DNA of 64,000 nt from Candidatus Latescibacterota bacterium (GCA_965219385.1 CBDCNM010000002.1:2598936-2662935), one strand, 5' to 3'. Positions 14,637 to 29,656 are shown, counted from the stretch's first letter. Notes: generated by a model not told the origin, from the letters alone. Translations and numbers: made by a program.

Positions 14637-14930
14637 CTAGACAATTGTGGCCTGTCGGGTCGGCACCTCATACGTTTTGCCCAGGCTTTCTACCAGGGGA
14701 TCGACCCGGTCGGCAGGCCCCAAGTCCACGATCAGGATATGATCCTCCGCCAACTCGATCAAGTCTTCCAAACGCGCGGTCATCTCGGCGCGCCGCCGAG
14801 CCGTCAGCCGACACTGGAAAACCGACAACTGCAGCCAGTATCCATAGCCTTTCATCACCTTAAACACGCGCCGCCAGCGCTTGGGCTCGGCTATGTCGTA
14901 CGCAACGATGTAGAGACGCTCGTTGGCCAT
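14637..14930 (-). CDS. cas2: CRISPR-associated endonuclease Cas2
   Basis: YIVAYDI, LQLSVFQC; 97 aa; adjacent to the array. Confidence 0.97.
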   Translation of the reverse strand: MANERLYIVAYDIAEPKRWRRVFKVMKGYGYWLQLSVFQCRLTARRRAEMTARLEDLIELAEDHILIVDLGPADRVDPLVESLGKTYEVPTRQATIV

Positions 14931-14935
14931 ATCGG

Positions 14936-27183: not shown

Positions 27184-29656
27184 ATCCATCCTCCTGTTCT
27201 TCTTTTGCCGATGCCCGCCAATCCGCAATCCGCACCAGTGCCTCCAGCCACGCGAGCCGGAAAGGGCCATACTGGGAAAGCAAATTGCGTGTACGCTCGG
27301 CCCAACTCGCGCCGGTTTCTGGATGCTCCCCCAACTCCATCACGGATAGTGTGAGCGGCCCCCCTGCCCAAGTTTCTCCACCACCTAAGTCAACCGGCGG
27401 GACCACATCGCCCTCCCATATGCCGCGGACAAAACGGGATTTATCCTCTCCTGTTGCCGGACGTTCGGCGGGAAGCGGACGCAAATTCAGGCGCACCTTG
27501 CCGTGATGGGCGGCGATCAGGTACGCGACCAGATCAGCCTCCCGTGCCCAGTCCGCTTGTGAGAGGAACGCGAGCGCAGACGCCAGTTCGTGCCGTAAGT
27601 ACGCCCGCCCCTTCATACGGTCGTACTTCGGGGCCTTGGCCAACAGACCCTCTGGCCGTGAATCAGACTCAGGGTCATTGGCAACCATTCGCGCCTGAAA
27701 CTCAGCGTGTGCCTTGCCGAGGTCGTGCCAGTATGCAGCCTGGACAATCGCGGCTTTCCAGTCTCCACAAACGCCGAGGCCATCGCACAGTAGTCCAGCT
27801 TTAAAAGCCACGTTGTCCAGATGCTTCACCAGTCCCACGAATCCCCTCTGTCTGCTGCTGTCGGGATCGGCGTCATTCGACTCGTCTGCTGCTGACAACT
27901 CCGCTTCTAGCTCCACAGGCTCGACCGCTGCTTTTATGTCCTGATCAAACCCCGTCTCCGGCGCGTACCCTCCGGTACTTGCAGAAACCAACAAGACCAA
28001 ACCCGGCCAAGGTTCCTCCCGGAACGCGGTCCAAGCCTTCATGTTATATCTCGCCTGCGGGTCTATGCGGAACACCCGCTGCCCTTCCTTTTGCCGGACA
28101 TTCTTGAGCCAGTCTCGGGCTTGTCTTATCGGAACTGCACAAAGCTCGTCCCGCGTCGGCGCGAGCTGATCCTCTAGTCCAGCCGACAAATCGCGCCAGA
28201 AGACGCGAATATCAGTATCCTCGGCATCGCGGATATAGGGAGCAATATCGACATCAAAGCCAGTCAAATCTGGATCAGTGTCGTATAGATCTATCATATC
28301 CCTAGATCGTATCACCCGCTGATGGTCGCAGTCATCGGGTGCAGGCGGCGCGAGATTGGACGGTCGAGCGTCCGTCAACGCGGCAATCCGCTCGCGTCCG
28401 ATTTTGAGCTCGTCAATCTCATAAGGAGCGGCCAGCAAATCATCGAGACCGCCACCGATGAGATCAATCCAGCGAATCGTCCCGCCGCCGGAATCGTTCA
28501 ATTCTCCGTAGCGGTTCACCCGACCAAACCGCTGGATGAGGGACGAGGCGGGCGCGAGTTCGGTGAGCATGACCGCCGCCGAAAGATCGACACCCGCTTC
28601 AATCGCCTGCGTCGCAACGACGATCAAGTCTTTCGCCTCCCCAGGCTGCGGCAGCTTATCCATCTGCGATTTGCGATCTTTGGGCCGAAAGCGCGAGTGG
28701 ATGAGGGCGAGGCGAGCGGGCGAATCCTTTTTCTTGAGTGCCTTATGCACAGCTTGAGCTCGGACGACGGTATTGACTACCACGAGCGTCGTGCGGTTTT
28801 CTTGATGCAGCCGCAGAGTTTCTTCCGCCAACGCCGTGGCGTAAGCATCCAGACCGGCCTTCTTGGCACTCACCGGCGCAACGGACGCCTGCTGAATCGG
28901 CTTGGGTGCGTCAATCAGCTTGAGGACATGCGGCGACTGCCCGTCTTCAGGGAAATCGTCTGGAGCGCACCAAACCTTCGGACTTTGCTTGAAATCAACC
29001 GTGCCTAGCCAGTCTGGATGAAGGGTTGCCGACACCCAAAGACTGCGCGAGGCAATCTCCGTCCCCAATTTGCGACGAAAGCCTTCAAGTTGTGTGGAGG
29101 TTGCCAATCCCGAGCCCATGAGTTGCACCTCGTCAAAGACCCACTGCGCGTCGTTGTGCAGCAACGCGAAGTCCACCGGCCAGCGGAAGCGGCTCATGGC
29201 GTACCCCCGCATCAGAGCGCGACTGAGTAGCATGTCTTGGGTCCCAATCAGGATGGCTGGATGTTCGGGTCTTTCAAACCAGCGCGGCTCGTCAATGCCA
29301 CCCAAGCGCGGCTTGTCAATGCCACCCATAAGAACATGGACTCCGGTTTGGGGATCCGGGAGGCGCGATTTCCAGTCCGTATTTGCCTCTCCTAGCCGTC
29401 GCAGCCATTCTCTTACATTCCGCTCCGTCTGGTCAACGAGCGTGCGCATGGGCAGGCAATAGACGAGGCGACGCGGCAGTGCATACTCAGCGGCGATGTG
29501 CTGCCAAGCCCAGCCGAGTACTACCGCGGCGGTCTTGCCGAGGCCGGTCGGAGCAATAAGCGCGTCCGGCCAAGCTCGCTTTGCTAGCGCCTGCTGATAG
29601 GCGAAAGGGCTGATATCTTTGCCGAATGCTGTGGAGAAGAATTGATCGAAGGTCAT
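27173..29656 (-). CDS. cas3: Type I-G Cas3 (N-terminal helicase, C-terminal HD nuclease)
   Basis: APTGLGKT, DEVQ, SAT, TQAIEAGVD, QRFGRVNR, HDLGKA, HELASA, HHG. Confidence 0.96.
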   Translation of the reverse strand: MTFDQFFSTAFGKDISPFAYQQALAKRAWPDALIAPTGLGKTAAVVLGWAWQHIAAEYALPRRLVYCLPMRTLVDQTERNVREWLRRLGEANTDWKSRLPDPQTGVHVLMGGIDKPRLGGIDEPRWFERPEHPAILIGTQDMLLSRALMRGYAMSRFRWPVDFALLHNDAQWVFDEVQLMGSGLATSTQLEGFRRKLGTEIASRSLWVSATLHPDWLGTVDFKQSPKVWCAPDDFPEDGQSPHVLKLIDAPKPIQQASVAPVSAKKAGLDAYATALAEETLRLHQENRTTLVVVNTVVRAQAVHKALKKKDSPARLALIHSRFRPKDRKSQMDKLPQPGEAKDLIVVATQAIEAGVDLSAAVMLTELAPASSLIQRFGRVNRYGELNDSGGGTIRWIDLIGGGLDDLLAAPYEIDELKIGRERIAALTDARPSNLAPPAPDDCDHQRVIRSRDMIDLYDTDPDLTGFDVDIAPYIRDAEDTDIRVFWRDLSAGLEDQLAPTRDELCAVPIRQARDWLKNVRQKEGQRVFRIDPQARYNMKAWTAFREEPWPGLVLLVSASTGGYAPETGFDQDIKAAVEPVELEAELSAADESNDADPDSSRQRGFVGLVKHLDNVAFKAGLLCDGLGVCGDWKAAIVQAAYWHDLGKAHAEFQARMVANDPESDSRPEGLLAKAPKYDRMKGRAYLRHELASALAFLSQADWAREADLVAYLIAAHHGKVRLNLRPLPAERPATGEDKSRFVRGIWEGDVVPPVDLGGGETWAGGPLTLSVMELGEHPETGASWAERTRNLLSQYGPFRLAWLEALVRIADWRASAKEEQEDGCDD

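Follow-up and report, generated by a model that had tools for sequence, protein, structure and literature searches.

A type I-G CRISPR-Cas operon of a Latescibacterota bacterium with an embedded, Csm5-less type III-A-like cassette that probably shares its Csb2 nuclease and array

A 64,000-nucleotide (nt) stretch of DNA from a Candidatus Latescibacterota bacterium (GCA_965219385.1 CBDCNM010000002.1:2598936-2662935), hereafter the window, carries a CRISPR-Cas locus in which type I-G and type III genes form a single run. Pfam, NCBIfam and PADLOC agreed on all named genes, which lie in one orientation, on the minus strand, and either overlap slightly or leave only short gaps; their order is cas3g, cas8g/csx17, csb1, csb2, a phd-PIN pair, cas10, csm2, csm3, csm4, a CARF-HEPN gene, cas4/cas1, cas2 and the array. 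The original prediction, made from the sequence, had described such a run from cas3 to cas2 and the array, with the type III genes lying inside the I-G locus between its effector and adaptation genes; every named gene was present by all three resources, and the gene coordinates bore out this arrangement. The locus combines a type I-G system that is complete with a pared-down type III-A-like cassette placed immediately behind csb2, and as a composite operon it is real and intact.

The first gene of the run, cas3g (27173-29656, 827 residues), encodes a helicase with a C-terminal HD nuclease and was matched by TIGR02621 (747 bits) and by PADLOC Cas3g (875 bits); Pfam placed the DEAD and Helicase_C domains N-terminally and Cas3_HD at residues 632-818, which is the domain order of I-G Cas3. 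It is followed by the large-subunit gene cas8g/csx17 (24920-27270), matched by TIGR04113 and covered by two open reading frames (ORFs) in the assembly, and by the backbone-subunit gene csb1/cas7g (23917-24930, 337 residues; PF09617 with 148 bits, TIGR02570 and PADLOC Cas7g). The next gene, csb2 (22281-23945), encodes a Cas5-Cas6 fusion (TIGR02165 with 169 bits; PADLOC Cas56g with 484 bits), the true start of which is likely the Met 12 codons into the ORF, and which is presumed to be the endonuclease that processes the CRISPR RNA (crRNA) precursor for both effectors. With the families TIGR02570 and TIGR02165 both exceeding their cut-offs, the I-G backbone/nuclease pair is present. At the other end of the run lie the cas4/cas1 fusion (14936-16648, 570 residues), matched by NF049935 (Cas4g/Cas1g) with 783 bits against a cut-off of 560, and cas2 (14637-14930, 97 residues; PF09827 and PADLOC Cas2g). 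A PADLOC run had been proposed in the original prediction as a check, and its I-G models Cas3g, Cas7g, Cas56g and Cas2g were matched together with Csm4 and CARF1-CARF_HEPN.

The embedded cassette starts with cas10/csm1 (20037-21506, 489 residues; PF22335 with 103 bits, TIGR02578 with 257 bits), whose translation contains an intact cyclase GGDD motif and the zinc-finger cysteines. No HD family was matched in this Cas10 by Pfam, and its alignment to a solved Csm1 (6kbd) begins only at residue 234. The small-subunit gene csm2/cas11 (19514-20083, 189 residues) was matched by PF03750 and TIGR01870. The backbone RNase gene csm3/cas7 (18847-19512, 221 residues; TIGR02582 with 165 bits) is the sole Cas7-type gene of the cassette; its product can be aligned with solved Csm3 chains, and the Asp of the GG-x-D-N-P stretch, which we take to be the catalytic residue, is preserved. 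Downstream are csm4/cas5 (17918-18868, 316 residues; TIGR01903 with 82.5 bits, PADLOC Csm4 with 182 bits) and a gene for a Csx1/Csm6-like ancillary CARF-HEPN RNase (16659-17921, 420 residues; TIGR02710 with 188 bits, PF09670 and PADLOC CARF1-CARF_HEPN), the translation of which shows the R-x6-H motif of HEPN. TIGR02578, TIGR01870, TIGR02582 and TIGR01903 all exceeded their cut-offs, demonstrating the presence of Cas10, Csm2, Csm3 and Csm4 of type III-A. The feature set of a type III system signalling by cyclic oligoadenylate (cOA), namely GGDD and a CARF-HEPN effector, is likewise present, cOA synthesis being predicted from the motifs.

The cassette has no cas6, csm5 or adaptation genes of its own. 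A search of the entire genome with the csm5 family TIGR01899 (E<=0.01) came back empty, no unassigned ORF space is left between csm4 and the CARF gene, and other RAMP (repeat-associated mysterious protein) genes were found only in the III-D locus of the genome. No Cas6 model matched at the locus, so that the absence of a standalone cas6 noted in the original prediction was confirmed for the locus; it does not hold for the genome, in which a Cas6 is encoded in the III-D locus and a Cas6e in an I-E locus.

The array (13072-14427, minus strand), read from the sequence, has 19 copies of an identical 36-nt repeat, between which lie 18 spacers of 36-41 nt, and is located just outside the start coordinate (14637) given in the original prediction; a 209-nt leader (14428-14636, minus strand) separates cas2 from the first repeat. 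On the gene strand the repeat ends in ATTGAAGC, and Rfam CRISPR-DR16 matched the repeats on the same minus strand. Its fold consists of an 8-bp stem, a stretch of 4 nt and, last, the 8-nt ATTGAAGC, the putative handle. The length, the fold and this end fit the 36-nt hairpin repeat of type I-G, the cleavage site being a predicted one. Genome-wide, the repeat was found in this one array only. Spacers 9 and 11 are identical over their 39 nt (13773-13811 and 13626-13664, minus strand) with one other spacer between them, which points to a duplication within the array. When the spacers were compared with the window's own genome, only chance matches of 14-23 nt were obtained, with no self-target, protospacer adjacent motif (PAM) or strand signal. 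Two perfect tandem repeats elsewhere in the window (7910-8025, 56 nt x 2.1; 32613-32684, 24 nt x 3) are unrelated to the CRISPR locus.

To trace the cassette in other organisms, one genome per prokaryotic species was scanned with the Cas10, and 24 loci (designated L016-L039) were found, all of which were annotated by tblastn with 14 proteins of the window, and 16 of which also contributed 80 chosen ORFs to a PADLOC run. Cas10 identity across these loci is 53-90%, and the hosts belong to about nine phyla, including Latescibacterota, Verrucomicrobiota (Opitutales), Rhodothermota (Rhodothermales), Acidobacteriota (Bryobacterales and others), Binatota (Binatia), Chloroflexota (Dehalococcoidia) and Spirochaetota (Spirochaetia), along with one bin labelled Enterobacteriaceae. 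The clade comprises at least 434 protein clusters at E<=1e-30, almost all metagenomic. The same Cas10 gave no locus in a collection of viral contigs, and a collection of plasmids yielded one distant match (25% identity) on plasmid pACLO of Arcobacter cloacae. There, the Cas10 is annotated as hypothetical and lies in a canonical cas6-cas10-csm2-csm3-csm4-csm5 locus (L042, pACLO 65688-85085) neighboured by a PIN gene, a TM1812-family protein and RT-Cas1.

The architecture, whose recurrence the original prediction had proposed to check, does recur: the cassette adjoins I-G effector genes in 13 of the 24 loci. Six of them (L016, L020, L024, L026, L031 and L036) contain a csx17-type I-G operon in the same order as the window, and seven (L017, L018 at a contig end, L019, L021, L023, L025 and L039) contain another I-G variant, csb1-csb2-cas3g-short Cas8g. 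Only the C-terminal half of csb2 accompanies the cassette in L027 and L037, the cassette of L038 lies within an I-E operon, the flanks of six loci (L022, L028, L030, L033, L034 and L035) hold no type I gene, and two contigs (L029 and L032) are too short for judging. The order cas10-csm2-csm3-csm4 is kept in every locus long enough to show it. Wherever the gene following csm4 was identified it encodes a CARF effector of varying type (CARF-HEPN, CARF-RelE/DUF2103 or CARF2-HEPN), and in none of the 24 loci is there room for csm5 between csm4 and the next identified gene. Downstream, cas4/cas1 and cas2 occur in 12 of the 24 loci and cas4/cas1 alone in one more (L019), and an I-G-type repeat array was detected within the fetched stretch in 15. 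In L038 (38-16496), cas3e, cas8e, cas7e, cas5e, cas6e and cas1e lie upstream and I-E-type repeats downstream; this locus also has three csm2-like stretches, two csm3 genes and a cas10 split in two frames, and its genome carries csb2 elsewhere.

The condition of the cassette was assessed from the ratio of nonsynonymous to synonymous substitution rates (dN/dS) against two relatives, L026 and L020. Values of 0.08-0.22 were obtained against one or the other for cas10, csm3, csm4, the CARF gene, csb2 and cas4/1, and csm2 gave 0.48 against L026 and 0.19 against L020. With the intact GGDD, the Csm3 Asp, the R-x6-H motif and the low dN/dS, the cassette therefore looks functional, as an RNA-sensing, cOA-signalling effector without DNase. 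It could instead be pictured as a decaying, functionless remnant carried along in the I-G operon, given its reduced gene set (no HD, Csm5 or Cas6) and the toxin-antitoxin pair at its junction; the uniformly intact ORFs, the preserved catalytic motifs, the low dN/dS of most genes, the conservation of Cas10 across phyla and the size of its clade make such decay highly improbable.

One gene of the I-G part required closer inspection. In the assembly, cas8g is split into two ORFs (26389-27270 and 24920-26413), one matching TIGR04113 positions 1-202 and the other positions 244-714, and alignment with L016 and L026 attributed the break to a 1-nt deletion, namely one T missing in a T5 run near 26533. 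Contigs of three public runs (X19-X21), which are from one study and may include the window's source sample, carry the extra base at full depth (11.6/11.6, 14.6/14.6 and 16.6/16.6) and match the cas8g stretch without any further difference; in a fourth run from another study (X23), the extra base is partial (6.4/18.5). In tblastn, the N- and C-parts were in one frame in six of six related loci of the csx17-type variant. Since the missing base turns up in independent contigs from public runs, the cas8g gene is probably intact, the most plausible cause of the frameshift being an assembly error or a minor variant. A genuine cas8g pseudogene was rejected, the missing T being present in the X19, X20 and X21 contigs and partly in X23.

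Exactly at the boundary between the I-G and type III parts (21576-22225) lies the toxin-antitoxin pair, composed of a phd antitoxin gene (21980-22225; PF02604/TIGR01552) and a PIN/vapC-like toxin gene (21576-21983; PF01850). Among the 24 loci, tblastn placed such a pair at the same position only in L016, L018 and L021; it is thus confined to four Latescibacterota loci including the window, and in other relatives csb2 abuts cas10 directly.

In the Cas10 tree (22 rows; L033, L038 and L039, in which cas10 is split, were left out), loci of the two I-G contexts are intermingled. The window, L016 and L026, all with cas3-csx17-csb1-csb2, are about 90% identical in Cas10, Csm3, Csm4, Cas4/1 and Cas2 to L017, L018 and L021, all with csb1-csb2-cas3-short Cas8g, and the two groups have the same repeat, yet their Cas3 proteins are only about 30% identical. 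Because of this difference, the cassette, the adaptation genes and the array are judged to move as a block, the I-G effector cassette being what is swapped. Swapping between close relatives affects the ancillary CARF effector as well, and the I-G effector cassette is wholly lost in L027 and L037. On the favoured reading, the cassette, cas4/1, cas2 and the array act as one mobile unit that spreads horizontally and depends on a Csb2-type nuclease.

The association with Csb2 was evident at the genome level as well. The csb2 model TIGR02165 matched 23 of the 24 genomes carrying the module and none of 14 control genomes, and the single genome without a match is a fragmentary bin in which the module locus is a 2.9-kb contig. 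When toxin-antitoxin pairs are ignored, csb2 or its C-terminal half lies directly upstream of cas10 in 10 of the 24 loci. Within Latescibacterota, the module was found in 7 of 168 genomes (including that of the window) and csb2 in 25 of 168, all seven module genomes being csb2-positive; these seven are related to one another and for the most part already among the 24 loci, so that 7/7 is not an independent statistic. In 15 of the 24 genomes the clade Cas10 is the only Cas10. As for dedicated Cas6 proteins, PF10040 matched in four of the 24 genomes and TIGR01877 in five, all below the cut-off, and 18 of the 24 had no match to either model.

L027 and L037, both from Dehalococcoidia, were particularly informative. 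Here, a gene of 284 or 287 residues, respectively, abutting cas10 corresponds to the C-terminal, Cas6-like half of Csb2; in the alignment it starts from about residue 290 of the window's Csb2 and conserves the glycine-rich loop. Housekeeping genes lie upstream of the half-genes, and I-G-type arrays downstream, accompanied by cas4/1 and cas2 in L027. In neither genome was there a Cas7g match, and the half-gene was the only csb2 match. The nucleotide homology of L027 to its sister locus L024 begins in the middle of csb2. An AlphaFold model of the L027 protein, built on a 9-row alignment (predicted local distance difference test, pLDDT, 73.8; predicted template modelling score, pTM, 0.74), found ten PDB matches at E<=0.001, all of which are Cas6 endoribonucleases, with moderate TM-scores (template modelling scores) of about 0.4. 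A sequence-based comparison of Csb2 with solved structures gave no match, leaving no basis for placing the published enzyme's catalytic His. For a published Csb2, the C-terminal Cas6 domain alone was reported to suffice for cleavage and hairpin binding (PMC9638904). As L027 and L037 keep only the Cas6-like half, directly upstream of cas10, these loci support the assignment of Csb2 as the probable crRNA nuclease of the cassette.

Several variants of csb2 were encountered in the related genomes. In L025, csb2 is present twice, at 2879-4507 and 8489-9952, and the two copies fall under different PADLOC models (PDLC01777 and PDLC01778); the second is of the window type and lies directly upstream of cas10, and the other belongs to L025's own I-G variant. 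In L024 (8520-9997), csb2 occupies two ORFs in different frames, reflecting either a real break or an assembly error. Some Latescibacterota csb2 ORFs (G168:C1:6187758-6189911 and G131:C1:425191-427374; also in G191, G150 and G077) are 730-790 residues long and contain a complete csb2 match and, after it, a further match confined to the Cas6-like half, which suggests a tandem Cas6-like domain.

Taken together, we consider it likely, with a probability of roughly 70%, that two effectors are fed by a single array, a single adaptation module and a single nuclease, Csb2. The array would be transcribed, and the Cas6-like C-domain of Csb2 would cut each repeat 4 nt past the hairpin, as published for a homologue, leaving an 8-nt AUUGAAGC 5' handle. 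The resulting crRNA pool would be loaded into the I-G Cascade for PAM-dependent DNA targeting with Cas3, and the same pool onto Csm4, Csm3 and Cas10 for transcript sensing. Upon binding of target RNA, Cas10 would, to judge from the intact motifs, produce cOA and thereby switch on the CARF-HEPN RNase, with Csm3 cutting the target, and the single Cas4/1-Cas2 module would supply new spacers for both effectors. The sharing of Csb2-processed crRNAs put forward in the original prediction is the best-supported reading on comparative genomics, through the position of csb2 upstream of cas10, its occurrence in nearly all module genomes and the two half-csb2 loci, and the rival explanations, including the remnant already discussed, are less likely.

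Other possible sources of crRNAs have to be considered in the genome itself (5.8 Mb in 2 contigs, 94% complete), which holds three further CRISPR loci, of types III-D, I-C and I-E, giving four CRISPR loci and five effector modules in total. The III-D locus (G000:C2:1537104-1558999; L014, L015), 1.06 Mb from that of the window, has an array of about 23 repeats ending in ATTGAAAC and encodes a Cas6 matched by PF10040 with 68.6 bits (the only PF10040 match in the genome) and by PADLOC Cas6 with 308 bits. Also encoded there are, besides this 472-residue Cas6-domain protein, a CARF (NE0113)-sigma54 activator fusion, a CARF-PD-(D/E)xK protein, a TIGR03986 RAMP with an N-terminal cold-shock domain (872 residues), a short Cas10 (531 residues), Csx10, a double-RAMP Csx7-like protein, Csx19, a second TIGR02710 CARF-HEPN protein, a TPR-primase-polymerase and Cas1. 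The smaller contig carries a complete I-C locus with about 107 repeats, likewise ending in ATTGAAAC (C1:320355-336509; L040), and a complete I-E locus with Cas6e and about 69 repeats (C1:133683-147158; L041). The end ATTGAAAC is one base off the I-G handle, and the III-D repeat also differs upstream of the handle. The original prediction had named a separate cas6, csm5 and type III array elsewhere in the genome, serving this module, as what would refute it; the first and the last of these are present, and csm5 is nowhere in the genome. The locus holding the separate Cas6, however, is a III-D system complete in itself, and its repeat is another one; its Cas6 is unrelated, no profile similarity to the Csb2 C-domain being detected (probability 0.1%).

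Several observations weigh against a Csb2 shared by both effectors. Related genomes are not independent samples, and PF10040 and TIGR01877 miss Cas6e and Cas6f, which makes the lack of Cas6 in relatives a limited statement. The flanking DNA retrieved for six of the 24 related loci contains no type I gene (for L028 it reached upstream by just about 1.2 kb), and the cassette of L038 sits in an I-E operon beside I-E-type repeats; the link between the module and a neighbouring I-G system is therefore not a strict one. In the window's genome, the III-D Cas6 and array, the I-C array and the I-E locus with Cas6e are all other possible crRNA sources. Moreover, Csb2 was reported to remain on the 3' hairpin (PMC9638904), and release or trimming of the crRNA would thus be needed for a Csm complex lacking Csm5.

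These sources raise the possibility that the cassette is served in trans, by the III-D Cas6 and array or by Cas5c-processed I-C crRNAs, its position in the I-G operon being accidental. Both arrays end in nearly the I-G handle, a Cas6 is encoded at the III-D locus, and because six related loci are orphan cassettes without a nearby type I gene, use in trans must occur somewhere. Genomes with orphan cassettes, however, still carry csb2 elsewhere; most relatives have no other Cas10 (15 of 24) and no match to either Cas6 model (18 of 24); the III-D Cas6 and repeat differ as described above; and L027 and L037, with their half of csb2, reveal which part stays with the cassette once all else is lost. 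Supply in trans was thus regarded as unlikely for the locus in the window.

The lack of csm5 also bears on the architecture of the complex. A chimeric complex, offered as an alternative in the original prediction, found no support in our analysis. Its specific form would be an effector in which Csb2 stays on the 3' hairpin via its Cas6 domain and caps the Csm3 filament instead of Csm5, giving a fixed-length, Cascade-like type III complex. The absence of csm5 from the locus and the genome, the lack of room for it in tightly packed related loci and the retention of precisely the Cas6 half with the cassette would agree with such a cap. On the other side stand the orphan cassettes far from any csb2, and Cas6 is not known to be a stable subunit of characterised type III complexes. 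Uncapped effectors with a single Cas7 species have furthermore been accepted for III-F and III-H (PMC12669027), and a Csb2-capped chimera accordingly appeared improbable. A broader proposal links two claims: that the Csb2 Cas6 domain, the Csm5-less Cas10-Csm2-Csm3-Csm4, Cas4/1-Cas2 and the array, and not the I-G system, form the stable evolutionary unit, an unrecognised type III lineage that has taken over the nuclease and adaptation module of I-G and to which I-G effector cassettes are exchangeable add-ons, and that the Cas6 domain stays on the crRNA 3' hairpin in place of Csm5, giving a Cascade-style cap and untrimmed guides. As a pair, these claims are doubtful.

If the sharing of Csb2 and the array by two effectors is correct, each spacer acquired by one Cas4/1-Cas2 module would arm two effectors with different escape rules, with PAM- and seed-dependent DNA cleavage and mismatch-tolerant, cOA-producing transcript sensing hard-wired in one operon instead of being divided among several loci. 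The series from full I-G plus cassette, through swapped I-G variants, to the Csb2 Cas6 half only indicates the I-G part that the cassette needs, and the cassette itself, a small four-subunit, HD-less signalling effector, is a candidate for a compact toolkit. The principle of crRNA sharing is known and I-G/III hybrids are already catalogued; what is new is this particular clade without Csm5 and HD, its distribution over many phyla, and the series of loci in which the Cas6 half of Csb2 is retained. The novelty thus stands for this clade, undescribed in the open-access literature searched, where no paper describing a Csm5-less cassette within I-G operons was found, and not for type I/III crRNA sharing, Csb2-served III-B or I-G/III hybrids, all of which are in print. 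No new principle is opened; a widespread, unannotated clade is added to a known form of sharing.

Sharing of crRNAs between I-F and III-B systems was reportedly described by Silas et al. in eLife in 2017, with type III systems lacking cas6, cas1 and cas2 said to use type I crRNAs. Such a type III system resembles the cassette as proposed here in relying on a type I array and nuclease and in adding a second, RNA-sensing layer on the same spacers. In the window, by contrast, the cassette lies inside the type I operon, the partner is I-G with a Cas5-Cas6 fusion nuclease, and the type III part is Csm-like instead of Cmr.

III-F effectors combine an inactive cyclase with an active HD and are not known to have a cOA effector. 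Minimal III-G and III-H effectors have been reported to borrow crRNAs and to lack cyclase activity (PMC12669027). III-F and III-H share with the cassette a reduced set of subunits, one Cas7 species and, as proposed for the cassette, the use of crRNAs from other loci, but in III-H, according to PMC12669027, the cyclase is inactive, HD seems to be active and cOA effectors are absent, whereas the cassette shows the reverse, with GGDD intact, no HD and a CARF effector. The pattern that defines III-F and III-H was accordingly not found in the window cassette, and the available text of PMC12669027 contained no mention of a Csm5-less cassette in an I-G operon.

Closest on the I-G side is Thioalkalivibrio sulfidiphilus, which like the window has Cas3, Cas8g, Cas7g, Csb2 and a 36-nt repeat (PMC9638904). 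Its Csb2 alone cuts the 36-nt I-G repeat at a point 4 nt 3' of the hairpin, from which an 8-nt 5' handle results; this geometry is also the one predicted for the window's repeat, and no Cas5 is reported to hold the handle in I-G. Its type III-B locus is separate, whereas in the window a type III cassette splits the I-G operon. The type III-B system (Cmr1-6) of Haliangium ochraceum was reported to be functional in E. coli with csb2 as processing enzyme and a mini-array (bioRxiv 10.1101/2023.06.23.546230); its effectors are SAVED-CHAT and PCaspase, in contrast to the CARF-HEPN of the Csm5-less, HD-less Csm-type cassette. Among myxobacteria, six of seven listed hybrid loci combine I-G with III-B or III-D, one of the entries being a "Hybrid(I-G,III-D)" locus of a cultured Nannocystis strain (PMC11237760, Data Set S2); five of these six list I-G-type repeats ending in TTGAAGC or TTGAAGCA, and none is recorded for the sixth. 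The "Hybrid(I-G,III-B)" and "Hybrid(I-G,III-D)" loci are catalogue entries of an automatic typer, mentioned only in passing in the available main text, which offers no gene content, mechanism or analysis of recurrence for them, and are compared here by their listing. Hybrid loci are elsewhere a category that was renamed or removed, with sharing of adaptation, interference and processing in trans cited (PMC11229360).

Compared with canonical III-A systems of solved structure (6kbd, 6ifn, 6xn3 and 7uzw among others), the cassette is alike in the order Cas10-Csm2-Csm3-Csm4, the GGDD motif, the Csm3 RNase and the CARF-HEPN effector. It differs in having no HD, Csm5, Cas6, adaptation genes or array of its own, although an HD domain, reported in about 65% of III-A Cas10 proteins (PMC11229360), is not strictly defining. 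In the window, csb2 occupies the place that cas6 holds in a canonical III-A locus, as seen in the gene order on the Arcobacter plasmid.

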